Part shown: positions 2,913-58,889 of the stretch, piece by piece
Layout: each line of letters begins with the position of its first letter
Numbering within the stretch: the first letter of the stretch is position 1
Source of the DNA: Candidatus Parcubacteria bacterium
GTDB taxonomy: Bacteria > Patescibacteriota > Minisyncoccia > JACPXH01
Direction of reading: 5' to 3'
NCBI GenBank assembly: GCA_016196625.1
Contig: JACPXH010000006.1
Span: 32,660 to 96,659 of the forward strand
DNA: 64,000 bases
The notes under the pieces: model-generated
Databases searched by the model: none
Seen by the model: the letters and a program-made list of their open reading frames with translations, nothing else
Told to the model about the DNA's origin: nothing
Made by a program: the position numbers and the translations under genes

Positions 2913-3305
2913 ATGGCTGCGACCGCCCGTCAAGGTTTTCTGGCGACTTTACACGGCTGGTTCGCTTCAAGCTTTTGGCGCCGCCCGGCAGTGCTCTTCG
3001 CGGTTGGCGCGGCGCTGTTCCTCAACCTTGGCACATGGGTTGCGCTCGCTGTGGCCCTGCCCCGGAGTCCGTTTCCGTTTACGCTCCACTACACCGCGGC
3101 TCTCGGTGCTGATTTTTTTGGCACCCGCAGCCAGCTATTCATTGTCCCGGGGATTGGATTCTTGCTTCTGGGGCTCAACATCCTCCTTGCCGCGTGGCTC
3201 TGGAATCGCGAGCGGGCGCTCGCTGCGTTTGTGTTGGGCCTTACGCCGTTTGTGCAGATAGGATTGGCCGCGGGTAGCGTGTTTTTGATACTGGCGAATG
3301 CTTGA
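2913..3305 (+). CDS. hypothetical membrane protein
   Basis: ATG start 16 nt after the rmuC stop. Four predicted hydrophobic helices. No recognisable family. Confidence 0.45.
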   Translation: MAATARQGFLATLHGWFASSFWRRPAVLFAVGAALFLNLGTWVALAVALPRSPFPFTLHYTAALGADFFGTRSQLFIVPGIGFLLLGLNILLAAWLWNRERALAAFVLGLTPFVQIGLAAGSVFLILANA

Positions 3306-3346
3306 TTTAGCCGCGGCTAAATTGATTGTGTAACTGGCGGGCAATC

Positions 3347-3646
3347 TCAACAAGTTGTCACAAGGGTTAGGGTTTTTGATACGTAGTAGAGCGGATTTTC
3401 GAACAATTCCGGTGAGGAAAATCTGAAGCAGAATCCCCTCACGTATTTTTCAAGGTTGATTGACCAATGGTGATGATACATCCTTCGGACAAAGGTGCGG
3501 TAGTTGCCGAAGATTCCTTCCACCTCAGAGGTGTGCCGGAACTCGAACCTGCGGTGAATATCACGGCTGTGCTCGACCGGCCAGATGCGATCAATGCGCT
3601 GGTAGATTCCTGCGCCATCAGTCCAGAGCCGAGAACCAGGTTCCAC
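3347..3646 (-). pseudogene. IS1595-family (ISXO2-like) transposase, C-terminal fragment only
   Basis: 'LWTDGAGIY ... HTSEVEGIFGNYRTFVRRMYHHHWSINLEKYVRGFCFRFS' matches the IS1595 C-terminal region (TDgwkgY ... HTNtIEgfWs.lKR ... YHhvS.khLqrYldEf.fRyN). The N-terminal ~200 aa and terminal repeats were not found, so this is a decayed remnant. Confidence 0.6.
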
Positions 3647-5534: not shown

Positions 5535-6131
5535 CTAGCGACGGCCGGCCAAGGCCGCCGACAACGTTTCTTCGTCGGCGTACTCTAGGTCCCCGCCCTT
5601 GGGGAGTCCTCGGCCCAGGCGCGTTACGGGAATGTGCAATGACCCAAGCTGACGCTCGAGATAGAGCGCAGTCAGGTCTCCCTCGGTGGTGGGGTTGAAC
5701 GCAAGGACGACCTCGCGAACGTCCTTACCCTTACGGATACGATCAAGAAGCTCGTTGATTCTCACGCGGCGGTTGGCCTCGCGATCTCCGGCTGCGAGCA
5801 GCCCGCCGAGCACGTGGTAGACACCTCTAAACTTTTTGGTTTTTTCAATGGCGATTGCATCAGTTTCTTTTTCGACTGCGGCGATGAGGCCCTGATCGCG
5901 CCTCGGATCATCGCAGACCGAACAGCCCTTGCCGGTCTCGTCCGATGGCAGGAAACATTTTGGGCAGCGGTAGACTTCTGCATCGAGTTTGGCGATTGCT
6001 TCGGCCAGGCTCGCGCGCAGCTCTGTTGGCTGGCGCAAAAGCCAGTACGAGAGCCGGGCCGCAGTGCGCGGGCCGATGGTGGGGAGCTTCATCAGTTCGC
6101 TGATGAGGATTCTGACTGGTTTGGGAAGCAT
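5535..6131 (-). CDS. recR: recombination protein RecR
   Basis: HhH (LISELMKLPTIGPRTAARL), C4 zinc finger (CPKCFLPSDETGKGCSVCDD) and Toprim domain. The start is set at MLPKPV. The 17-aa upstream extension in the ORF track (MLRFARNDE...) is a translation of the hairpin repeat. Confidence 0.9.
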   Translation of the reverse strand: MLPKPVRILISELMKLPTIGPRTAARLSYWLLRQPTELRASLAEAIAKLDAEVYRCPKCFLPSDETGKGCSVCDDPRRDQGLIAAVEKETDAIAIEKTKKFRGVYHVLGGLLAAGDREANRRVRINELLDRIRKGKDVREVVLAFNPTTEGDLTALYLERQLGSLHIPVTRLGRGLPKGGDLEYADEETLSAALAGRR

Positions 6132-6158
6132 GGACGGATTCTTCGAGGCAACAATTTC

Positions 6159-6498
6159 GTCATTGCGAGCGAAGCGAAGCAATCTCGAGGAGATCTTGGT
6201 ATGACGGATTTCTACTTTCGATCAGTGCAATCTTTTTCTGACGTGATCCAGCTTTTATTTTCTTTTCGGCAGATATAGCATCTTCCGCAGTAGGAAATGT
6301 TTCGGAATAGACAAGTTTTCCGATCCGATATTTTATCGTGAACCCGTCAGGGGAGCCATTTCGATGTTCGTGCATCCGTCTCATGATGTCATTCGTCACG
6401 CCAGTATAGAAAACAGTGTTCCGTTTATTCGTAGCGATGTATACGAAATACTCTTTCGGCATGAGATTGCTTCGTCGCTTCGGCTCCTCGCAATGACG
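6159..6498. mobile_element. MITE-like element: ~33 bp inverted repeats (GTCATTGCGAGCGAAGCGAAGCAATCTC / GAGATTGCTTCGTCGCTTCGGCTCCTCGCAATGAC) flanking a GIY-YIG gene
   Basis: The inverted repeats abut both ends of the gene exactly: the stop codon lies inside the left repeat (6160-6162) and the start codon ATG (6460-6462) immediately abuts the right repeat. The same repeat pair recurs without cargo at 12760-12848, 14494-14564, 19278-19355, and in degenerate form at 15924-15978. Confidence 0.65.
6160..6462 (-). CDS. small GIY-YIG nuclease family protein
   Basis: MPKEYFVYIATNKRNTVFYTGVTNDIMRRMHEHRNG is a GIY-YIG domain (100 aa). The C-terminal LEIASLRSQ is encoded by the flanking hairpin repeat. 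Confidence 0.75.
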   Translation of the reverse strand: MPKEYFVYIATNKRNTVFYTGVTNDIMRRMHEHRNGSPDGFTIKYRIGKLVYSETFPTAEDAISAEKKIKAGSRQKKIALIESRNPSYQDLLEIASLRSQ

Positions 6499-6505
6499 CG
6501 ACGGG

Positions 6506-7924
6506 CTATTCCGTCAGCGGCTCTCCCGCGAACTCTCCAATCTCTTCTTCTTTGGCTAAGTTTTTAAAGCTCGTCTGCTGCTCGTTGAAGTAAAGTTCAA
6601 TTCGGCCAATGGGGCCGTTGCGGTGTTTGGCTATGATGATTTCAGCGATGTTCTTTTTTTGCGAGGATTCTTTGTAGCGGTCCTCTCGGTATATGAACAT
6701 GACGACGTCCGCATCCTGTTCAATACTGCCGCTTTCTCTTAAATCCGAAAGTTTCGGCACCGGCGGGTGGCGTTGCTCAACCGCGCGCGAAAGCTGCGAG
6801 ATCGCAAGGATTGGCACATTGAGCTCGCGGGCCAGACCCTTGAGAGCTCGCGAAATTTCTGTAACCTGCTGCACCATGCTGTCGGCGGGCTTTAATGGTT
6901 GGATGAGCTGCAGATAGTCCACTATGAGAAGCCCCAAACTATGTTCAGCTTGGAGGCGCCGACCCATGGTCTTCATTTGGAGCACGTTGATCGAGGCGTT
7001 ATCGTCAACAAAAATAGACGCTTCCGCCAGCACGTCGAAGGCGATACGAATTCGGTCAAAATCAGAATCCGGTCCGTCATAGGACAGGCGGCCGGTGCGG
7101 AGCTTCCAGGTGTCCACGTGCGCTTCGGCCGCAATGAGGCGATCCACTAGGGATTCCCGGCTCATCTCAAGCGAGAAGATTCCGACTGTCACTTTTTCGT
7201 GAATGGCCGCATGTCGGGCTATGTCTAGGGCGAGCGACGTTTTGCCGAGGCTCGGGCGGGCAGCCAGCACAACCAGGTCTGATTTCTGAAGGCCGGCCAA
7301 GAGGTTGTCGAGATCGGTAAAGCCAGTGGGTGTGCCCCGCAGCGCGCCGTCGCCTTTGTGCAGGCGATCAATGCGCTCGAAGGCGTCAGCAAGCTGGCTG
7401 CGGATCGGGGTGAATTCTTGGGCGAGCGACTGCTGGGAAATCTTGAACACCCGCTGCTCAACGCTGTCGAGCATCTCGTCTATGTCTTCGGTTTCCTGAA
7501 AAGCCTTTTCGGCGATGTCGTAGGAGGTGGATATTAGTTCGCGCAGCGTATGCTTTTTGCGGACGATCTTGGCGTAGTGAACGATGTTGGCCGCGGTCCC
7601 GACGGAGTTGACCAGGGTCGCGAGGTAGCTTGCGCCGCCGATGTCTTCGAGCTTTCCTTTTTCGCGCAGCCGGTTGGTGGTCGCGAGCACGTCAGTGGGT
7701 TCATTTTTGGCGAATAACTCCAGCATGGCCGCGTAGATGGTCTGATGGCTGCCGCGGTAGAACATTCTGGGGTCGAGCAAGACGTCTGAAATCTTGTGAA
7801 TAGCGTCTCGATCTATCATCAAAGCGCCCAGCACCGACTGCTCGGCTTCGATGGCCTGCGGCGGCAGGCGGTCCGGCGCCTGCGAGGTGATGACCGCGCC
7901 GATCGGTTTGGGTGTTTCAGCCAT
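6506..7924 (-). CDS. dnaB: replicative DNA helicase DnaB
   Basis: DnaB N-terminal domain (QAIEAEQSVLGALM), Walker A (ARPSLGKTSLAL) and RecA-like core. Start set at MAETPKP (7924). The track's longer ORF to 8152 adds a non-homologous extension. Confidence 0.9.
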   Translation of the reverse strand: MAETPKPIGAVITSQAPDRLPPQAIEAEQSVLGALMIDRDAIHKISDVLLDPRMFYRGSHQTIYAAMLELFAKNEPTDVLATTNRLREKGKLEDIGGASYLATLVNSVGTAANIVHYAKIVRKKHTLRELISTSYDIAEKAFQETEDIDEMLDSVEQRVFKISQQSLAQEFTPIRSQLADAFERIDRLHKGDGALRGTPTGFTDLDNLLAGLQKSDLVVLAARPSLGKTSLALDIARHAAIHEKVTVGIFSLEMSRESLVDRLIAAEAHVDTWKLRTGRLSYDGPDSDFDRIRIAFDVLAEASIFVDDNASINVLQMKTMGRRLQAEHSLGLLIVDYLQLIQPLKPADSMVQQVTEISRALKGLARELNVPILAISQLSRAVEQRHPPVPKLSDLRESGSIEQDADVVMFIYREDRYKESSQKKNIAEIIIAKHRNGPIGRIELYFNEQQTSFKNLAKEEEIGEFAGEPLTE

Positions 7925-8075
7925 GTCGGAAATTATATATCGGTTATGGCACAGCCCGAAGGGCCGGGGAAGGGGATAAGTTGTGAGGAAGCTGGGACGG
8001 CGTTGACTAAATTTTGTGTTTGTGATACCGTAGCAAAAAGTAATCCAGGAAACGCTGGAAAGGACGATGTGGGCG

Positions 8076-8477
8076 ATGACGCTAGAGATGAAAAAGCGGT
8101 TGCGTAGTTTCGGGGTGTATGTGGTGAGGGGGATGGGCGTAGATCCGGCCACAGGAGCTTTGTTCAGTTACCCGTTCGTTGCTCTTTACCATGATACCGA
8201 AATGCCGACCGGGGAGGAGGTTGGGTTGCTTGAAGAAGCGGTGCGCATGCGTGCCAGGCGCTTCTTGCCCGGGGAGGTTCGTGGTTTCACCGCGAGGGAG
8301 CGAACACCGCAATCTTCCGGAAGATCGGCGGCGGACGGTGGACGTTCCGTAAACTCACGTGGACCGTGGGCCCCACGTGGTATTCGAAGCCGGGGGCACT
8401 CCGGGAGATCATCGCGGAGGCGATACGGTAGCGAGGCCTCGCGCGCCGAGGCAGGAGGGAAAAGATGGCGAACGTGA
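8076..8477 (+). CDS. hypothetical protein (C-terminal third R/S-rich, possibly mis-framed)
   Basis: ATG with an upstream GGA-rich spacer. The N-terminal 75 aa look protein-like. The remainder is low complexity. Confidence 0.3.
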   Translation: MTLEMKKRLRSFGVYVVRGMGVDPATGALFSYPFVALYHDTEMPTGEEVGLLEEAVRMRARRFLPGEVRGFTARERTPQSSGRSAADGGRSVNSRGPWAPRGIRSRGHSGRSSRRRYGSEASRAEAGGKRWRT

Positions 8478-9671: not shown

Positions 9672-9701
9672 CACATTATACTACGATCGTATTATAATAT
9701 G
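9672..9701. repeat. near-palindrome CATTATACTACGATCGTATTATAATATG (family 2, copy 1)
   Basis: Related to 9759-9790 and 34804-34837. Built around TACGATCGTA. Confidence 0.7.
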
Positions 9702-9758
9702 TAAAAAGCCCGACAGATTATAGATTACGTGTTAGGCGCATCGGTATTAATGCCGCGT

Positions 9759-9790
9759 GCCGCATTATCCTACGATCGTAGGATAATGCG
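9759..9790. repeat. perfect palindrome GCCGCATTATCCTACGATCGTAGGATAATGCG (family 2, copy 2)
   Basis: Core ATTATCCTACGATCGTAGGATAAT is self-complementary over 24 bp. Copy 3 lies upstream of aspS. Confidence 0.8.
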
Positions 9791-9812: not shown

Positions 9813-11291
9813 CTAAAGTTTTACCGTTAGCCGCGGACCGACCGGCGTATCTTCCACCATAAACCCAGCAGTTTCGATCTCCGCGCGTTTGGCATCGGCA
9901 GTTTGCCAATTTTTATCCGAACGGGCTTGCTCCCGTTCGGCCAGGGATTCCAGTACTTCTTTCGGTACTGGTTTTGACCAGAGGAAATTGAGCCCGAGGG
10001 CTTCGTCAACAAAGCGGTAGAAGTCGGTGAGCGTGCGGGTGCCTGCACGGGTAAGCTCGCCGCGTTCTTGCAGGTTTAAAAACCGCTCGGTTGTGGTCTG
10101 CAGCGTGGCGATAGCTTTGGGTGTGTCGAGGTCGTCGTTGAGCGCATCCGTAACGGTTCGTTTTACCGCCGCGGCCTGAGACCCGATCAAATCTTTCTCT
10201 GCCTTCGGCCCGCCGCTGTCGGCGGCGAGACTCTTCGTAGCCGGCAATTGCTGCCAGAGCTCCAGTCCGCGAATCTGCTGGGTGAGTGTCCGCCGACTCG
10301 CTTGGGCTGCGGCGAGCGCCTCCAACGTAAAGTTGAGCTTGGAGCGATAATGGGCCATGAGCACGAGGAAGCGATAGTCGAGCGGATCAAAACCTTTTTG
10401 GACGAGGTCAGCAACCGTGTAAAGGTTGCCGAGAGATTTTGACATTTTCTCGCCGTCCACCGTGAGAAATTCGTTATGCAGCCAAAAACGCGCGAGCGGT
10501 TTGCCGTACGCCGCTTCAGACTGGGCGATTTCGTTGGTGTGATGCACCGGAATGTGGTCAATCCCGCCCGTGTGGATGTCAAAAGGCTGGCCCAAATATT
10601 TAACCGACATGGCCGAGCACTCAATGTGCCAGCCCGGGAAACCTTTGCCCCACGGCGATTCCCACTCCATCTGGCGATGTGATTCGGGCGGAGAGAACTT
10701 CCAGAGCGCAAAATCAGTCGGATGCTTTTTCTCGCCCATTTGAACGCGCGCGCCGGCTTCTTGGCCTTCGACGTTAAGGCGGGCGAGCTTGCCATAATCA
10801 GAGAGTTTGGAGGTATCGAAATATATGCCGTCCGAAGTGCGGTACGTAAAACCTTTTGTTTCAAGTGTTTCAACAAGCGCGATCTGTTCGGCAATGTGAT
10901 CAGTGGCCTTAGGCATAACGTCAGGCAGTTTGACGTTGAGCATTTTCAAATCCTTGATGAACTGTTCCGTGTAGAATGCAGCGATTTCCCACGCGGTTTT
11001 GCCCTCGCGTTTCGCGCTCACTTCCATCCGGTCTTCGCCTTCGTCCGCATTTGAAAGCAGGTGCCCTACGTCCGTAATGTTCATTACGTGTTTTACCTCG
11101 TAGCCGTTGAGCTCCAAGACGCGCCGGAGAATGTCCACGAAGATGTACGCGCGCAGATTCCCGATGTGCGCAAAGTCATAGACCGTGGGGCCGCAGGCGT
11201 ACAGGCCCACGCGTTTATCTACGAGCGGGGTAAATAGTTCTTTGGAGCGGGTGAGAGTATTGAATAGCTTCATGAGCTTCTGGAGCTCCAC
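9813..11291 (-). CDS. cysS: cysteine--tRNA ligase
   Basis: Class I HIGH-type motif (HIGN) and KMSKS. The N-terminus ([14 protein letters not shown]) and the zinc-binding region are those of CysRS. Length 492 aa. Confidence 0.9.
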
Positions 11292-11299
11292 TAGCTTCG

Positions 11300-11674
11300 C
11301 TAGCTTTTTGTGGCGCGAGGGTTGAGGGTTTTGATCATAGCGTGAAGCATCTTCATCACTTCAGTAAGAAGTGCCGTTGTCCTTGCGTAATCCAGACGTT
11401 TTGTTTTCGGGAGGCGCTGCGCGATTTCGAGTTGCGTTTCCAGCTCGGCGCCAGAGCTGTACGCGATTCGGAGAAACTGGAGGAAGTCTTGTTTCGTGCC
11501 GCGATGGCGACCCTCTGCAATGTTTGAAGCAATCGTTACCGCTGACCGACGCATCTGGGCGATGAGTCCGTAGATCTCTTCTCGCGGGAATTGTTCAGTC
11601 AGTTCATAAATAGCAACCACCAGTTGGATGGCGCGCTGCCACACAATGAGGTTTCGGTATGAGTGTATCGTCAA
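11300..11674 (-). CDS. four-helix-bundle protein (23S rRNA intervening-sequence protein family)
   Basis: [50 protein letters not shown] matches the TIGR02436-type signature. Confidence 0.8.
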
Positions 11675-11682
11675 AGTCGCAG

Positions 11683-11760
11683 GACTCGAAAGCTCATAAA
11701 GCTGCAGAAGTTCGTGAAGCTAATGAAGCTGATGAAGCTAGCGAAGCTAGTGAAGCTCGC
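11683..11760. repeat. tandem 9-mer array (GAAGCTNNN)x8
   Basis: gaaagctca taaagctgc agaagttcg tgaagctaa tgaagctga tgaagctag cgaagctag tgaagctcg. Related arrays at 56503-56610. Confidence 0.7.
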
Positions 11761-12704: not shown

Positions 12705-12759
12705 GTTCGTTGCACAGTTGCGTTGGTTCTGGAACTCATTTTAAAGCCTCCGTCGCTTC

Positions 12760-12848
12760 GTCATTGCGAGCCCCGAAGGGGCGTGGCAATCTCATGAATA
12801 AGCCACTGATGAGAGATTGCTTCGTCGCTTCGCTCCTCGCAATGACGG
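12760..12848. repeat. cargo-less copy of the GIY-YIG-associated hairpin inverted-repeat pair
   Basis: GTCATTGCGAG...CAATCTC + 20 bp spacer + AGATTGCTTCGTCGCTTCGCTCCTCGCAATGAC. Confidence 0.7.
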
Positions 12849-13501: not shown

Positions 13502-13735
13502 TGTTGATTTGAGATCCAGCTTGAATTGTTGTTAGTTCTTGAAAACACCGCATTCCTCCACAAATCCGTGGGTTTCCGTGATTACCCTCCTACTCGCGGT
13601 CCGTCCTGAGAGCAATCAAGGGACGGGGGGTCCTTCTGGACTTTTAAACCCTCGGATTTGTGGAGGAATCGAATAGCGCGAAATGGGGGCGGAGCGGCTG
13701 CTAGGCAGCCGCTCCGCCCCAGAGTTCCGTTGACT
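13502..13735 (+). ncRNA. candidate structured RNA / cis-regulatory leader upstream of ORF 13756
   Basis: A 23 bp long-range helix (13549-13573 with 13647-13671) encloses a ~73 nt multi-hairpin insert. A perfect 16 bp hairpin follows at 13686-13720, then SD GAGGGAGGA and the ATG at 13756. Confidence 0.3.
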
Positions 13736-14493: not shown

Positions 14494-14564
14494 CGTCATT
14501 CTGAGCGAAACGAAGAATCTAGTCCGAACGAGATTCTTCAGTCGCTTCGCTCCCTCAGAATGAC
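14494..14564. repeat. variant cargo-less hairpin-repeat pair (GTCATTCTGAGCGAAACGAAGAATCT / AGATTCTTCAGTCGCTTCGCTCCCTCAGAATGAC)
   Basis: Same architecture as 12760-12848, with CATTCTGAG in place of CATTGCGAG. 10 bp spacer. Confidence 0.7.
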
Positions 14565-14899
14565 ATAAGGTGAGATTAACAACCTGCGAGAGCGTATACC
14601 GTCGGATTGTGGGAAAAGAAACTCCAGGCATTGATTATTGTTCAGTTTGTCTTTTCGATTCGACATTGTACTAAATCGCAAAGTTCCTCGAACTTTGCGA
14701 TCGTACGAATATCGCCGCGCGATGTTCCAGTATGCGTTCTCGCAGGCGGTTAAAGCCCTCCGGCCCCCCGGCAAACTGTGAGCTCAAAAACATTTGCCGG
14801 GCCCCGATGTGCTGAGCATTCAACGTTCTTCCGCCATCCGGCGGAATGGACAAACCCTGCTTCGCGTGAAGCGACGCAGGGTCAGGATAAGGAGGGGCC

Positions 14900-15874: not shown

Positions 15875-16208
15875 GTGAGGCGGGTTGTGATGGAGTCATG
15901 ATGCTCGATCCGAGTTCAGAACGGGATTGCTTCGCCCCGTAGAATCCCGCTAGGATTTGTACGTGGCTCGCAATGACGACCGTTCAGGCTTCTGATGGAG
16001 CTCCGGGCTACATCGCAACATTCGCAAGAATTTTGTGATCGCCCGACCATCGCAGGGCGATGGTTTAGGACTCCGTGTTCTATTCATCTTATGCGAAAAC
16101 CCCGCCTTGCGCGGGGTTTTCGCTTGGTGGTAGGTTGGGCAAACACAAACCGCCGTTTTCGGGCAAGCCCTGCTTCGTGCAAAGCGATGCAGGGCAAGGA
16201 GGGGATAA

Positions 16209-19156: not shown

Positions 19157-19277
19157 GGCATCTCACCTCCTTTCTCGTTGTGCCATGGCTAATTTCCATA
19201 CAGTAATATAAAATATAAGTAACCAATAAGTCAAGACTTCAAAGTTTATGGTTCAAGCGAACGACTGTCCGAAAAAT

Positions 19278-19355
19278 GTCATTGCGAGGAGCGAAGTGAC
19301 GAAGCAACCTTGTATGTAGGCCACAAAGAGATTGCTTCGTTTCGCTCGCAATGAC
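19278..19355. repeat. cargo-less hairpin-repeat pair (GTCATTGCGAGGAGCGAAGTGACGAAGCAACC / GAGATTGCTTCGTTTCGCTCGCAATGAC)
   Basis: Same family as 6159-6498. 19 bp spacer. Sits ~90 nt upstream of dnaK. Confidence 0.7.
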
Positions 19356-19441
19356 AAAGGGGTATTCTCGGACAGTCTGGAAGTCGAGAACAGAAAACTT
19401 CTCGACGCCGCTCGAAGCATAAACAAGAGGAGATATCGCAT

Positions 19442-49194: not shown

Positions 49195-49292
49195 AACGGG
49201 GTCAAAATCCAAATACCAAATCAAGCTCAAGGCCAAAAGCTCAAAACAGTTTTGTCATTGGGATTTTGGATTTGATTTGACATTTGAGCTTT
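49195..49292. repeat. inverted heptamer arrays (…CAAAATC CAAATAC CAAATCA AGCTCAA … / TTTTGTC ATTGGGA TTTTGGA TTTGATT TGACATT TGAGCTT TGGCATT TG)
   Basis: Same repeat style as 36338-36428. Located between gltX and the M23 peptidase gene. Confidence 0.7.
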
Positions 49293-50536
49293 GGCATTTG
49301 TCATTTATTTCTCTCCGGGCAGCTATTTTGGCAATCATCCTCGCATTCACGGCGCTGTTGTGGCCGGCATTGGTGCAGGGGGCTCCGATTGACGACCTCC
49401 GACAGCAAATCGAGGCGAAATCCAAAGAGATCCAGAGTCTCGAGGAGGAAGCGCGCAAGTATCAAGCGGAAATCAAGGCGAAACAGAAAGAACAGAACAC
49501 CCTCGCGAATCAAATCATCCAAATTGCAAGCCGCATCGCAAAACTCTCGCTCGACATTCGGCTCACCGAAGCGAAGATTGCCAAGACCGAGTTTCAAATT
49601 GAGCAGATTGCCCTTGAGATCGACCGGCGCAACGAAGAGATTGAAGGCGAGAAGCGAACGTTGGCGCAGGCGATTCGGGTGCTCTCAGCCTACGACGGGG
49701 AAGCGATGCTTGCGGTCGTGCTCAAGAATCCGACCTTCTCCAAGTTCCTCGATCAGGTGCAGTACGTATCCAACCTGCAGGGAGAAATTCAGCGCAAGCT
49801 CGAGAGCGTCAAGTTGCTCAAGGCAAGTCTCGAGGAGGAAAAAAGCGATCTGGAAACAAAACGCGACGAGCTGGACGATCTACGAGGACAGCTCGACGCC
49901 CAGCGGCAGCTCGCCCGCGACCAGCGGAGCGAACGAGAAAGTTTGCTCAAGCAGACACGCAACCAAGAAGCGCGCTACCAGTCGTTGCTGAAAGATATCC
50001 GCAGCCGCCAGCTCGAAATCCAACAGGAAATCGTTGATCTGGAAGAAAAGCTGCGCCGCGCCATTGATCCTTCCGGCGTGCCCGGCGCGCGTCCGGGCGT
50101 GCTCACTTGGCCTCTGGAGGGAGTGTTGAGTCAGGGGTATGGCCCCACTAGTGCTACTGGGTTTACCAATGACGGCTATAAATTTCACAACGGCGTGGAC
50201 ATTGCAGCTGCCTTCGGTAGCCCCGTGCGCGCCGCGCGCGACGGCAAGGTCGTGGGAGTAGGGGACTTGGGCCGGTGGGCCTACGGCCGGTGGGTGGCGG
50301 TCGAACACGGCAACGGACTGAACACGCTCTACGCGCATCTCTCGTTGGCTGCGGCTCGTCCCGGTCAGACGGTTCGACGCGGTGAGATTGTTGGTTATGA
50401 AGGCTCAACCGGCTTTTCCACCGGCCCGCATTTGCACTTTACGGTTTACGCTTCAAGCACTTTTCGTTTCGAGGAGCGGCCATACGGCACGCTGCCGGTG
50501 GGCGGGTCAATCAATCCGCTCGACTATTTGCCGTGA
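49288..50536 (+). CDS. M23-family peptidase with N-terminal signal peptide and long coiled coil (EnvC-like)
   Basis: LytM/M23 catalytic domain (HNGVDIAAAFGSPVRAARDGKV...YAHLS...TGPHLHF). TTG start proposed at 49288. The track's ORF from 49016 crosses the repeat region. Confidence 0.75.
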
Positions 50537-54825: not shown

Positions 54826-55218
54826 TTATGGACAGTTCGCCGCTTTCGTGTATCCGGCTTGCTCTGCCTCCGCGATCGTCGCAAACCAAATGCGGTTTTC
54901 TGGTTTGATGCGGTTGGCAGACGCGCAATCCTTCGGGTAGTAGCGTTTGCCGTTGCGGCTCGCAAGGAAATTCCCTTGCGCTTGGGTTTTTAACTGTTGA
55001 CTTGCGGTTTGGCTGCTAGCAGTGCTCCCCTCTTCCCGGACAAATAGTTTTTGCAGGTCCACTTCGTGGAGCGTAACCGGCGGTTTCGGATGCGGCGTAG
55101 TGAGCCGCCCGAGGCCGAAACTTCCGAGCGCCACAAGACCAACTGCAAGACCCACGAGAATGTCGCGCTGCCAGTCGGCCCAGAGGACCTTGATTTTCTC
55201 GAGGAAGTCAGCTAACAT
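54826..55218 (-). CDS. membrane-anchored protein with C-terminal Ada-like metal-binding ('YxxxC...RpC') domain
   Basis: N-terminal TM helix. C-terminus KRYYPKDCASANRIKPENRIWFATIAEAEQAGYTKAANC resembles the Ada N-terminal zinc-binding / 'sunset' domain family. Confidence 0.4.
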   Translation of the reverse strand: MLADFLEKIKVLWADWQRDILVGLAVGLVALGSFGLGRLTTPHPKPPVTLHEVDLQKLFVREEGSTASSQTASQQLKTQAQGNFLASRNGKRYYPKDCASANRIKPENRIWFATIAEAEQAGYTKAANCP

Positions 55219-55222
55219 TATT

Positions 55223-55317
55223 AAGCTTTTAGCTTCTAGCTTTTAGCTTTTAGGACGAGACGATTGGTCGCATCACATTCGGAAGCTAAAAGCTATAAGC
55301 TAACAGCTAAAAGCTAA
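55223..55317. repeat. inverted heptamer arrays (AAGCTTTT AGCTTCT AGCTTTT AGCTTTT AG / ~30 bp loop / AAGCTAAA AGCTATA AGCTAAC AGCTAAA AGCTAAG)
   Basis: Near-perfect long imperfect hairpin that fills the divergent region between the 54826..55218 gene and rpmA. Confidence 0.75.
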
Positions 55318-55320
55318 GAA

Positions 55321-55599
55321 ATGGCCAAACAAAAAGCAACTGGTTCTACACGGCTCGGCCGCGACTCTCAGTCCAAGCGCCTCGGGGTCAAGCTCTACGA
55401 CGGGCAGCTTGTCCGACCTGGCAACGTGCTCGTGCGCCAGCGCGGCACCAAGATTTTCCCCGGCATCAACGTCCGGCGCGGGAGCGACGACACGCTCTAC
55501 GCCGCCACAGCCGGCAAGGTGAAATTTGTCGGCAAAACTAAGGTCCGCTTTGACGGTCGCCGCCGGAAGGTGAAAGTGGTAAACGTGCTGCCGGGTTAA
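55321..55599 (+). CDS. rpmA: 50S ribosomal protein bL27
   Basis: [24 protein letters not shown]... is the canonical bL27 sequence. Confidence 0.9.
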
Positions 55600-56499: not shown

Positions 56500-56502
56500 C
56501 GT

Positions 56503-56610
56503 AGCTTCATTAGCTTCGAGAGCTTCACTAGCTTCACGAGCTTTGCGCCACACGTTTTTGGAAAGCTAACGAAGCCAAAGAAGCTAGCGAAGCTTCTGAA
56601 GCTACAACCC
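56503..56610. repeat. inverted 9-mer arrays (TAGCTTCAT TAGCTTCGA GAGCTTCAC TAGCTTCAC GAGCTTTGC / spacer / AGCTAACGA AGCCAAAGA AGCTAGCGA AGCTTCTGA AGCTACAAC)
   Basis: Same GAAGCT-based 9-mer unit as 11683-11760, present here as an inverted pair. Confidence 0.7.
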
Positions 56611-57830: not shown

Positions 57831-58889
57831 TCAGTCGAAGAGTTGTTCCATGGCGGAGCGGATGTTGTCGTAGGTGCCGCCTTTCGGCACAAGCACGAAG
57901 GCGCCCTCAACGGAGGTTTCTTCCAGCAATCCTTCGGGCGCAGTGTCGAAAACCTTGCGCTTGGCGGGCATGGCTCCGAGCCGCGCAGCAACCCCCAAGA
58001 GCGCTTGGACTTCCTCGGTGCTTGCATCGGTCAATACATGGCTCGCAATGCTGTCGAGGATTTTGTTGAGCGTGACAGGGTTTGCCAAGATTCCGAGCGT
58101 GAGCACCTTGTCTTTGAGCGCCAGCAGCACTTGTTGTTGTCGGCGGGCGCGGTCGAAATCGCTCGTGGCGAACCGTGAACGGACGTAAAAGAGGGCTTGT
58201 TCGCCATTCAGGCGGTTTGGGCCGGCTTCAACCACGAAAGCGCCGTTGTGGGCGGCGAAGGCCGGATAGCCAGTCCACTGGGTTGGCTCTACGAAGGGTT
58301 CTTTGAGCGTTACGTCAACTCCTCCGACCGCATCCACGATTTCCCGGAAGGCTTCAAAATCAACGCTCAGCGCGTGATCAATCTTGTAGCCGGTAATTTC
58401 GCTCACCACGCGCTTAGCATACGCGAGTCCGCCGCCGCGGGGGTGGCGCTCCTCACCGCGCGCGTAAGCCGCGTTGATCCGCTCGCGCGCCCCGTGGTTG
58501 GGGATGCGGACAAAAAGATCCCGGGGGATGGAGACGAGCGCGACCTGATTGCGTTTGGTGTTGATGACGGCCATGAGCAGCGTGTCCGTGAGCAGTCCCC
58601 CATCGGGATCTCCGCGACCCCGCAAGCCCAGGAGCAAAATGTTGATGCGGTCGGGGTCTTCCTTCGCCACGAAATCGGCCTGAGGAAGGATTTTCGCCTC
58701 GTCGATTGCGCCCGCCACACTGATGTGATTTATGGTGTAGCCGGTTTTGCCGAACAGAGCCGAAAGCGCCACCACGATCACCAGCATCATCCCCCACAGC
58801 CACCAGCGCCTCCGTCTGTGTCGGGGGCGCGGTTCGATGGCGGGGCCGGTTTTGGGCGGGATCGAGTCGGGCATGGCTACTGGAACCAC
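57831..58889 (-). CDS. LytR-CpsA-Psr (LCP) family protein
   Basis: N-terminal TM helix. LCP core (NILLLGLRGRGDPDGGLLTDTLLMAVINTKRNQVALVSIPRDLFV). Confidence 0.85.
   Translation of the reverse strand: MVPVAMPDSIPPKTGPAIEPRPRHRRRRWWLWGMMLVIVVALSALFGKTGYTINHISVAGAIDEAKILPQADFVAKEDPDRINILLLGLRGRGDPDGGLLTDTLLMAVINTKRNQVALVSIPRDLFVRIPNHGARERINAAYARGEERHPRGGGLAYAKRVVSEITGYKIDHALSVDFEAFREIVDAVGGVDVTLKEPFVEPTQWTGYPAFAAHNGAFVVEAGPNRLNGEQALFYVRSRFATSDFDRARRQQQVLLALKDKVLTLGILANPVTLNKILDSIASHVLTDASTEEVQALLGVAARLGAMPAKRKVFDTAPEGLLEETSVEGAFVLVPKGGTYDNIRSAMEQLFD

Follow-up and report, generated by a model that had tools for sequence, protein, structure and literature searches.

Background

The closest described relative of the locus reported here is the Ssn system of Neisseria, in which SsnA, a 94-aa single-domain GIY-YIG protein (CDD cd10448), binds NTS (CGTCATTCCCGCGMAVGCGGGAATCYRG), a hairpin repeat, exclusively in single-stranded DNA, which it cleaves a few nucleotides upstream of the repeat, being inactive on double-stranded DNA (Chenal et al., Nat Commun 2025, PMC11893778). 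The same study found that the three bases before the NTS palindrome control cutting and that the C after it controls binding, the identity of the loop being dispensable. It demonstrated binding and cutting directly for four members of the Ssn family, located a repeat near 71% of the Ssn homologues and on both sides of 42% of them, observed that SsnA of N. meningitidis reduces transformation by repeat-bearing DNA, and likened the repeat-gene-repeat layout to an insertion sequence, maybe a domesticated one (PMC11893778). The present analysis deals with a locus of this layout in a stretch of 64,000 nucleotides (hereafter the window) from Candidatus Parcubacteria bacterium (GCA_016196625.1, contig JACPXH010000006.1, positions 32,660 to 96,659), where a gene for a 100-aa GIY-YIG nuclease is enclosed between two inverted copies of a hairpin repeat (6158-6498), in the interval separating dnaB from recR.

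Repeats of a comparable type are known as CGTC-tagged REPs (repetitive extragenic palindromes), a superfamily that includes dRS3 of Neisseria and RPE-4/6 of Rickettsia and whose members 'apparently lack a dedicated transposase' (Di Nocera et al. 2013, PMC3733652).

We consider it likely that the locus is an Ssn/SRM module, that is, the gene of a small, site-specific single-stranded-DNA nuclease flanked on either side by its cognate hairpin repeat in inverted orientation. Elsewhere in the window the same Ssn/SRM repeat occurs as head-to-head pairs and, at one position, as a solo unit. The element is a member of the already described Ssn/repeat system; a repeat class uncaptured by the published motif and the comparative evidence of module transfer are new.

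Results and discussion

An ssn-like gene between dnaB and recR

On the minus strand, dnaB (6506-8152), the GIY-YIG open reading frame (ORF; 6160-6462) and recR (5535-6131) follow each other in this order, and the unit-gene-unit element occupies almost completely the gap between dnaB and recR, in a contig of 57% G + C whose GIY-YIG and RecR proteins are recorded under Candidatus Parcubacteria. Exact look-up of proteins from the window returned no entry. The ORF is classified as an ssn-like gene encoding a single-domain GIY-YIG nuclease from its Pfam PF01541 match and its homology to SsnA. The search with hidden Markov models that an earlier note on this DNA had suggested returned PF01541 (GIY-YIG) with an E value of 9e-15 over residues 5-77, and by tblastn it is the only GIY-YIG gene in the window. 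The protein shares 42% identity with the SsnA orthologue of N. gonorrhoeae (E 6e-26 in pairwise comparison; tblastn E 4e-16), within the limit of E < 1e-10 by which Chenal et al. recognise SsnA homology (PMC11893778). Its residues Y8, Y19 and E66 align with Y6, Y17 and E64 of the gonococcal ORF, which is 94 aa long and has NTS repeats on its flanks, and the set Y8, Y19, R29, H33 and E66 is invariant in 24 homologues of the window protein. The predicted structure (pLDDT 89) is a compact GIY-YIG fold with no additional domain, the nearest folds being UPF0213 (1zg2) and then the nuclease domains of Slx1. No promoter of its own is visible for the nuclease gene and the dnaB-recR gap leaves no space for one, so that the gene is probably transcribed by read-through from dnaB into recR.

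At E <= 1e-10 the family comprises 8,870 clusters at 50% identity, and its hosts belong to Patescibacteria, Planctomycetes, Chloroflexi, Cyanobacteria, Proteobacteria, Bacteroidetes, Bacillota, Actinobacteria and others. No specific family for the window protein was found in PADLOC or NCBIfam, and the assignment of the gene to a defence system or to a group I intron endonuclease, which was also considered, received no support in these scans.

Copies of the repeat in the window

The repeat unit has the form YGTC-ATTGC-loop-GCAAT-C(TC) and a length of about 28-36 nt. Upstream of the nuclease gene, a unit on the minus strand (6463-6498) reads CGTC-ATTGC-GAGGAGCCGAAGCGACGAA-GCAAT-CTC and is directly followed by the ATG (6460-6462), which adjoins GAGATTGC...CTCGCAATGAC(G) with zero spacer (gene-strand sequence CGTCATTGCGAGGAGCCGAAGCGACGAAGCAATCTC, 6498-6463). 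Downstream, the unit on the plus strand (6158-6186), inverted relative to the former, reads CGTC-ATTGC-GAGCGAAGCGAA-GCAAT-CTC and contains the GCGAAGC mini-hairpin motif; as (C)GTCATTGCGAGCGAAGCGAAGCAATCTC at 6158/6159-6186 (gene-strand sequence GAGATTGCTTCGCTTCGCTCGCAATGACG, 6186-6158), it includes the last 8 codons of the gene (EIASLRSQ) together with its stop. The exact bracketing of the 100-aa ORF that the earlier note had described, with the ATG abutting one arm and the C-terminal codons and stop inside the other, is thus borne out, the count of codons within the arm being 8 instead of 7.

Three gene-less pairs of units, with spacers of about 9-19 nt, are located in intergenic regions. 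The head-to-head pair at 12759-12847 (units 12759-12793 on the plus and 12813-12847 on the minus strand, 19-nt spacer ATGAATAAGCCACTGATGA) folds as single-stranded DNA with -28.8 kcal/mol (z -6.4), and its spacer (12794-12812, ATGAATAAG...TGA) looks like a remnant of the start and stop of the gene. The pair at 14494-14565 (units 14494-14520 plus and 14530-14565 minus; -21.9 kcal/mol, z -6.5) is a variant with an ATTCT/AGAAT core. The pair at 19277-19356 (units 19277-19309 plus and 19328-19356 minus; -26.1 kcal/mol, z -8.1) carries a GCAAC mutation in the 3' stem half of its left unit and ends 86 nt before the dnaK ATG, in agreement with the distance of about 90 nt given previously. A solo unit with a 35-nt loop and no partner lies on the minus strand at 15923-15978. 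It had been counted as a degenerate pair, so that of the at least five inverted pairs claimed four stand, and of the four gene-less ones with short spacers three. The inverted partner sequence quoted in the earlier note matches copy B (12759-12847), copy A (the gene-bearing one) having one extra G (TTCGGCTCC).

These matches exceed chance, as a 26-mer of the repeat has 2 matches in the window and 0 in shuffles, CATTGCGAG has 8 where 0.9 are expected, and the strict unit pattern has 317 in the 506 kb formed by the window and related loci, again with 0 in shuffles. A further match at 58042 was rejected as a unit. No Rfam family was matched at either gathering or permissive thresholds. The units also reach into neighbouring ORF calls, as had been remarked before: the N-terminal extension of RecR, 'MLRFARNDEIVASKNPS', is the read-through of a unit, and a source of spurious ORF ends that is very common in genome annotation (with ends such as 'LRFARND', 'IASLRSQ' and 'SLAMT') is explained by the element.

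Each unit is a conserved hairpin

Covariation was analysed in 80 loci around homologues, with one genome per species. Variant 5' cores are accompanied by the complementary 3' half, in 26 cases against 1 for ATCCT and in 18 against 0 for ATTCT. Mixed-core pairs account for 12 of the 59 short pairs, and every unit in them is still self-complementary. Because these mixed-core pairs keep intra-unit pairing, the conserved structure is a hairpin within each unit, beyond arm-to-arm pairing, and arm-to-arm pairing as the sole conserved structure was rejected. As to the folding of the arms, for which the earlier note had called, whole pairs fold strongly. Every arm is a conserved hairpin in its own right, which is REP-like and differs from a plain terminal inverted repeat.

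All stems begin with AT and measure 5 bp, and they enclose a loop of 9-16 nt or longer. The loop occurs in a short (GAGCGAAGCGAA) and a long form (GAGGAGCGAAGCGACGAA), both with a mini-stem of 2-3 bp closing a GNA triloop. This mini-stem covaries (GC, AU, CG), with a score that was reached in 0 of 500 shuffles. GCGAAGC is known as an unusually stable DNA mini-hairpin. When units were anchored on the palindrome only, GTC preceded the stem in 277 units and C followed it in about 268, the great majority in both cases, and both are invariant columns of the unit. The base before GTC is T in 354 cases, C in 93, A in 34 and G in 29 (T or C in 87%).

Solo outer termini (for example GCTCAGGATGAC or GTCATCCTGAG), repeated 3-5 times at a spacing of 10-25 nt, form arrays that adjoin complete units in several loci of the comparison set (L091, 2383-2480 and 2800-2870; L081, 1390-1450; L008 and L031, around the gene).

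Comparison with known systems

The window locus shares with the Ssn system a GIY-YIG protein of one domain and about 94-100 aa, in which the catalytic Tyr/Tyr/Glu is retained at 42% identity, a gene lying between inverted hairpin repeats that are also present as many gene-less copies, and a repeat which starts with YGTC-AT, ends with AT-C and co-varies with the protein. The GTC before the palindrome and the C after it occupy the positions found critical by Chenal et al. (PMC11893778). It differs by its repeat, which combines a 5-bp ATTGC stem with a structured loop of 9-16 nt or more containing a C-GNA-G mini-hairpin, whereas NTS has a stem of 8-9 bp and a loop of 3-5 nt, and by its host, a candidate-phyla-radiation bacterium in which the nuclease activity is predicted. 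A genome of this radiation is now placed in the Ssn system. The Ssn family is of interest as a toolbox of site-specific cutters of single-stranded DNA, and a large repeat class in which the stem differs and the loop is long and structured would widen the range of enzyme/site pairs.

The repeat resembles the CGTC-tagged REPs (PMC3733652) in its unpaired C/TGTC tag, in the first stem pairs (A-T and then T-A), in the prevalence of head-to-head dimers (here 59 short convergent pairs) and in its occurrence in many phyla, and Ssn-type genes are flanked by CGTC-tagged-REP-like repeats in Neisseria, Azospirillum and Sinorhizobium. In contrast with the four CGTC families described, the window unit has a shorter stem (5 bp vs 8-9 bp), a longer loop (9-16 nt or more vs 4-5 nt) with its own mini-stem of 2-3 bp, and a tail of CTC/CTT instead of CCA.

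With REP/RAYT (REPIN) and IS200/IS605 elements the locus shares hairpin repeats recognised (here by prediction) as single-stranded DNA, repeat doublets, clusters like BIMEs (bacterial interspersed mosaic elements), a gene that is usually in low copy number between inverted repeats, and the lack of a target-site duplication. A RAYT is an HUH Y1 transposase flanked by REPs; the protein here belongs instead to the hydrolytic GIY-YIG nucleases, which unlike the HUH tyrosine transposases have no covalent rejoining intermediate, and the likeness of layout is analogous only. Free-standing GIY-YIG homing endonucleases (Seg proteins, I-TevI type) are likewise encoded by small, selfish-looking nuclease genes which, where related genomes have them at one site, exceed the flanking DNA in identity. 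They differ in that the window protein lacks a DNA-binding domain and the Ssn family does not cut double-stranded DNA; by its fold the window protein is closer to the UPF0213/Slx1 branch than to I-TevI.

The repeat accompanies the nuclease gene across phyla

The canonical bracket, with a forward unit upstream and a reverse unit downstream of the gene, was found in 34 of 81 genome loci and, in an independent metagenome set, in 33 of 47; the remaining genome loci mostly have a unit on one side or another orientation. In homologues, stop codon and downstream unit as a rule overlap (TGAGATTGC or TAGATTGC), and 0-35 nt separate the upstream unit from the ATG. The tabulation of arm-to-arm distances proposed in the earlier note gave 59 convergent pairs with a spacer of 0-100 nt, which are gene-less, and 29 with a spacer of 270-400 nt, which have the gene inside. 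That note had held that arms always paired with a GIY-YIG ORF, or never paired with one outside this locus, would point to generic hairpins; since gene-less and gene-bearing pairs coexist, neither situation is found.

In a neighbour-joining tree, the proteins encoded beside non-ATTGC cores cluster regardless of phylum, and 8 of the 11 variant-core proteins have another variant-core protein as nearest neighbour (1.45 expected). The mean pairwise distance within the variant-core group is not below random (p 0.96). Protein similarity follows the core variant of the repeat, an association visible in the nearest-neighbour test only. Among the proteins most closely related to that of the window, which lie outside the Proteobacteria, the ATTGC class predominates.

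Other arrangements were seen at individual loci. Direct repeats of a whole unit pair surround the gene (pair-gene-pair layout) in L009 (2908-3415 and 5881-6041), L077, L040, L091 and L188 (1091-1599), a layout that fits insertion beside a pre-existing pair or recombination with it. In the Sinorhizobium meliloti pSymB record (L189, 930-1480), two tandem ssn-like genes lie between gltA and lpxB, each with its own GTCATCCTCGGG...CCCGAGGATGAC units. Nostoc-type genomes (L017, L065 and L069, around 3300-3600) have the gene at an orthologous site, with unit loops differing by mini-hairpin insertions of 21-22 nt, and one of them contains a 196-nt insertion beginning exactly at GTCATTGCGAT. In L156 (2158-2312), the ssn-like gene is broken by a 155-nt insert with terminal inverted repeats of its own (TTAGCCATTTTA...TAAATTTTGGCTAA), unrelated to the units.

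Evidence for transfer of the module

A relative (L102, GCA_964522735.1) has the same element at the same dnaB-recR site. The two elements are 96.8% identical in nucleotide sequence (93% at third codon positions) and the next 27 nt are 100% identical, while dnaB shows 87% identity (69% at third codon positions) and recR 74% (52% at third codon positions). Judged from these sequences, the unit-gene-unit block is younger than the flanking host genes. In other relatives (L098-100 and L105) the dnaB-recR site is occupied by a PF05635 gene between AGCT-type inverted arms (TTAGCTTTTAGGTGTTAG / CTAACACCTAAAAGCTAA, at 2577-3001 in L098 and 501-925 in L105), and the gap holds gene-less palindromes in two more, of the TTTTCAAT type in L101 (465-640) and of the AAATGTCAAAGCTCAAA type in L103 (2857-3001). 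The site thus looks like a hot spot for hairpin elements. An inverted repeat of the same type as the L103 palindrome (AAATCAAGCTCAAGGCCAAAAGCTCAAA / TTTGAGCTTTGGCATTTGTCATTTATTT) lies elsewhere in the window, at 49218-49310.

Only the module is shared, at 85-89% identity and between unrelated flanks, in the locus pairs L041/L058 and L004/L129, and the similarity begins with GTCATT and ends with AATGAC plus 0-3 nt. In L136/L147 the module is 96% identical and the flanks 83-88%. An empty site is provided by Azospirillum: A. lipoferum 4B has the gene between sufB and sufC with a repeat pair on each side, and A. ramasamyi, whose flanking genes are 97% identical, has there a gap of 91 nt with neither repeats nor gene. 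Insertion differences between relatives, for which the earlier note had asked, are therefore present at dnaB-recR, where the occupants vary, and at sufB-sufC. Taken together, these alignments show that exchange concerns the block delimited by the outer ends of the units and that the module behaves as a transferable unit, evidence which goes beyond that of Chenal et al. and bears on a question left open in their 2025 paper, namely whether the modules are or were mobile.

No target-site duplication was found, either at the copies in the window or at those module ends that were mapped. Many pairs with the same spacer sit in local tandem clusters. A single in-frame stop interrupts an otherwise intact ssn-like gene in 4 of 81 loci (L019, L026, L044 and L057). 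Stop-codon remnants at spacer ends were rejected as a test of deletion origin, as the unit consensus supplies most of the stop and the test is too weak.

A proposed mechanism and what weighs against it

By homology to SsnA, the window protein would bind the unit only in single-stranded DNA with the unit folded as a hairpin, with the C that follows the stem read for binding and the GTC that precedes it for cutting, and would cleave a few nucleotides 5' of the unit. In the copy with the gene, cutting is predicted immediately beyond the two outer ends and on opposite strands, and Ssn cleavage would therefore define the ends of a recombining segment. The block could then spread through recombination or repair on single-stranded DNA, during transformation or replication, with the Ssn cuts setting its ends. 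The gene-less pairs would be derivatives, produced by internal deletion or by independent amplification and maintained as REP-like hairpins, and the Ssn system of this host may act on incoming DNA.

Several observations weigh against this scheme. A hydrolytic nuclease cannot alone rejoin DNA. The fold energy of single units is indistinguishable from that of shuffles (z about 0 with nearest-neighbour energies), and whole window pairs, each forming a single long hairpin, fold much more stably (-22 to -29 kcal/mol, z -6 to -8); evidence for a hairpin inside the unit therefore comes from covariation, not from energy. More than half of the genome loci show a (-,+), (+,+) or (-,-) arrangement or have a unit on one side only. 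No near-identical copy at a second site was found in the metagenome collection (best 65%), no polymorphism was detected within two sampled populations, whose contig sets from several samples are identical, and the family is rare on plasmids and phages. The single-stranded-DNA specificity attributed to the window protein is an extrapolation at 42% identity. Finally, the published degenerate SRM motif has 0 matches in the window and matches 0 of the 317 ATTGC-class units, and the ATTGC class is therefore outside the range tested by Chenal et al. (PMC11893778). This motif, derived from 29 genomes, serves for searching and does not define the repeats; it matches only 5 of 133 loci, but does match those of Neisseria, Azospirillum and Sinorhizobium.

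A broader proposition can be put forward tentatively, and as a whole we would rather doubt than assert it: that Ssn/repeat modules are still-mobile selfish elements spreading between genomes and sites via single-stranded DNA with the nuclease defining their ends, that the ATTGC-core long-loop repeats form a separate and very widespread specificity class missed by the published motif (in candidate-phyla-radiation bacteria, Planctomycetes, Chloroflexi, Cyanobacteria and others), and that the whole CGTC-tagged REP superfamily has in Ssn the dedicated enzyme it had long seemed to lack.

Alternative explanations

The module might instead be a domesticated host system in analogy with REP/RAYT, in which nuclease and hairpins are retained by the host and control the fate of single-stranded DNA, for instance by restricting transforming DNA, or serve as transcript hairpins, the module itself being immobile and its transfers ordinary homologous recombination. 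The lowered transformation by NTS-bearing DNA in N. meningitidis, from which domestication was proposed (PMC11893778), agrees with this, as do the cyanobacterial copies, which make up a clade coherent by taxon and share an orthologous position among several Nostoc-type genomes, the rarity of the family on plasmids and phages and the presence of one gene per 64 kb in the window. Yet the block of excess identity shared with L102 coincides with the element and not with a random recombination tract, the same module recurs between unrelated flanks, phyla are mixed in the protein tree, nonsense copies exist, and the gene lies within operons such as dnaB-recR and sufB-sufC, with an empty site in a close relative. 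We judge this explanation unlikely, though deserving of serious attention.

An autonomous transposon with MITE (miniature inverted-repeat transposable element) derivatives, close to what the earlier note had proposed, would have the GIY-YIG protein act as a transposase that excises and inserts the block and moves the gene-less pairs in trans. This would suit the layout resembling an insertion sequence, the sharp-ended module in unrelated contexts, the spacer shared by several gene-less pairs within one genome (L009, L024, L027, L040), the single nonsense codon in 4 of 81 genes, as in decaying selfish genes, and the occurrence of both filled and empty sites. It is nevertheless improbable: a target-site duplication exists at no copy, many of the same-spacer pairs are locally clustered in tandem and not dispersed, the window with its one gene and its diverged pairs shows no recent burst, and the gene sometimes stands outside the pair or between direct repeats of whole pairs. 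Strand-transfer chemistry is not known from GIY-YIG enzymes, which act on DNA by hydrolysis. SsnA, moreover, is inactive on double-stranded DNA (PMC11893778). The MITE-like reading is partly supported, in that a repeat-gene-repeat unit is conserved across phyla, occupies filled sites with empty counterparts, is younger than its flanks and occurs in unrelated contexts; its transposon sense is not supported, with no target-site duplication and a protein that is a GIY-YIG nuclease of no known transposase class.

That the repeats are generic terminator or REP-like hairpins with a GIY-YIG gene between two of them by chance and no functional link, as the intergenic position and strong folding of the gene-less pairs could suggest, has a negligible probability and is already contradicted by the association across phyla, the same bracket recurring around homologues in dozens of phyla far above chance. 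Against it stand also the protein similarity, which follows the repeat core, and the binding and cutting shown directly for four family members (PMC11893778).

Other elements in the window and at the dnaB-recR site

The Ssn/SRM module has a counterpart in the PF05635 ('23S rRNA intervening sequence protein') elements, which also consist of a small ORF between inverted arms with gene-less arm pairs nearby, occupy the dnaB-recR site in relatives and have a copy in this window. They differ by an unrelated protein, a four-helix bundle, and by unrelated arms made of arrays of AGCTTC-type 9-mers. The window copy (11265-11740) comprises a bAvd-like PF05635 ORF on the minus strand (11300-11674, E 4e-35) bracketed by such arrays, and gene-less arm pairs of this type lie at 55216-55323 and 56501-56605. 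Two more inverted repeats, at 9674-9788 and 13552-13669 (25 nt at 88% and 24 nt at 96%), belong to different sequence types. The DnaB of the relative L098 (1-2577, product of 898 aa) contains an intein with a LAGLIDADG domain, and the DnaB ORF of the window has no intein.

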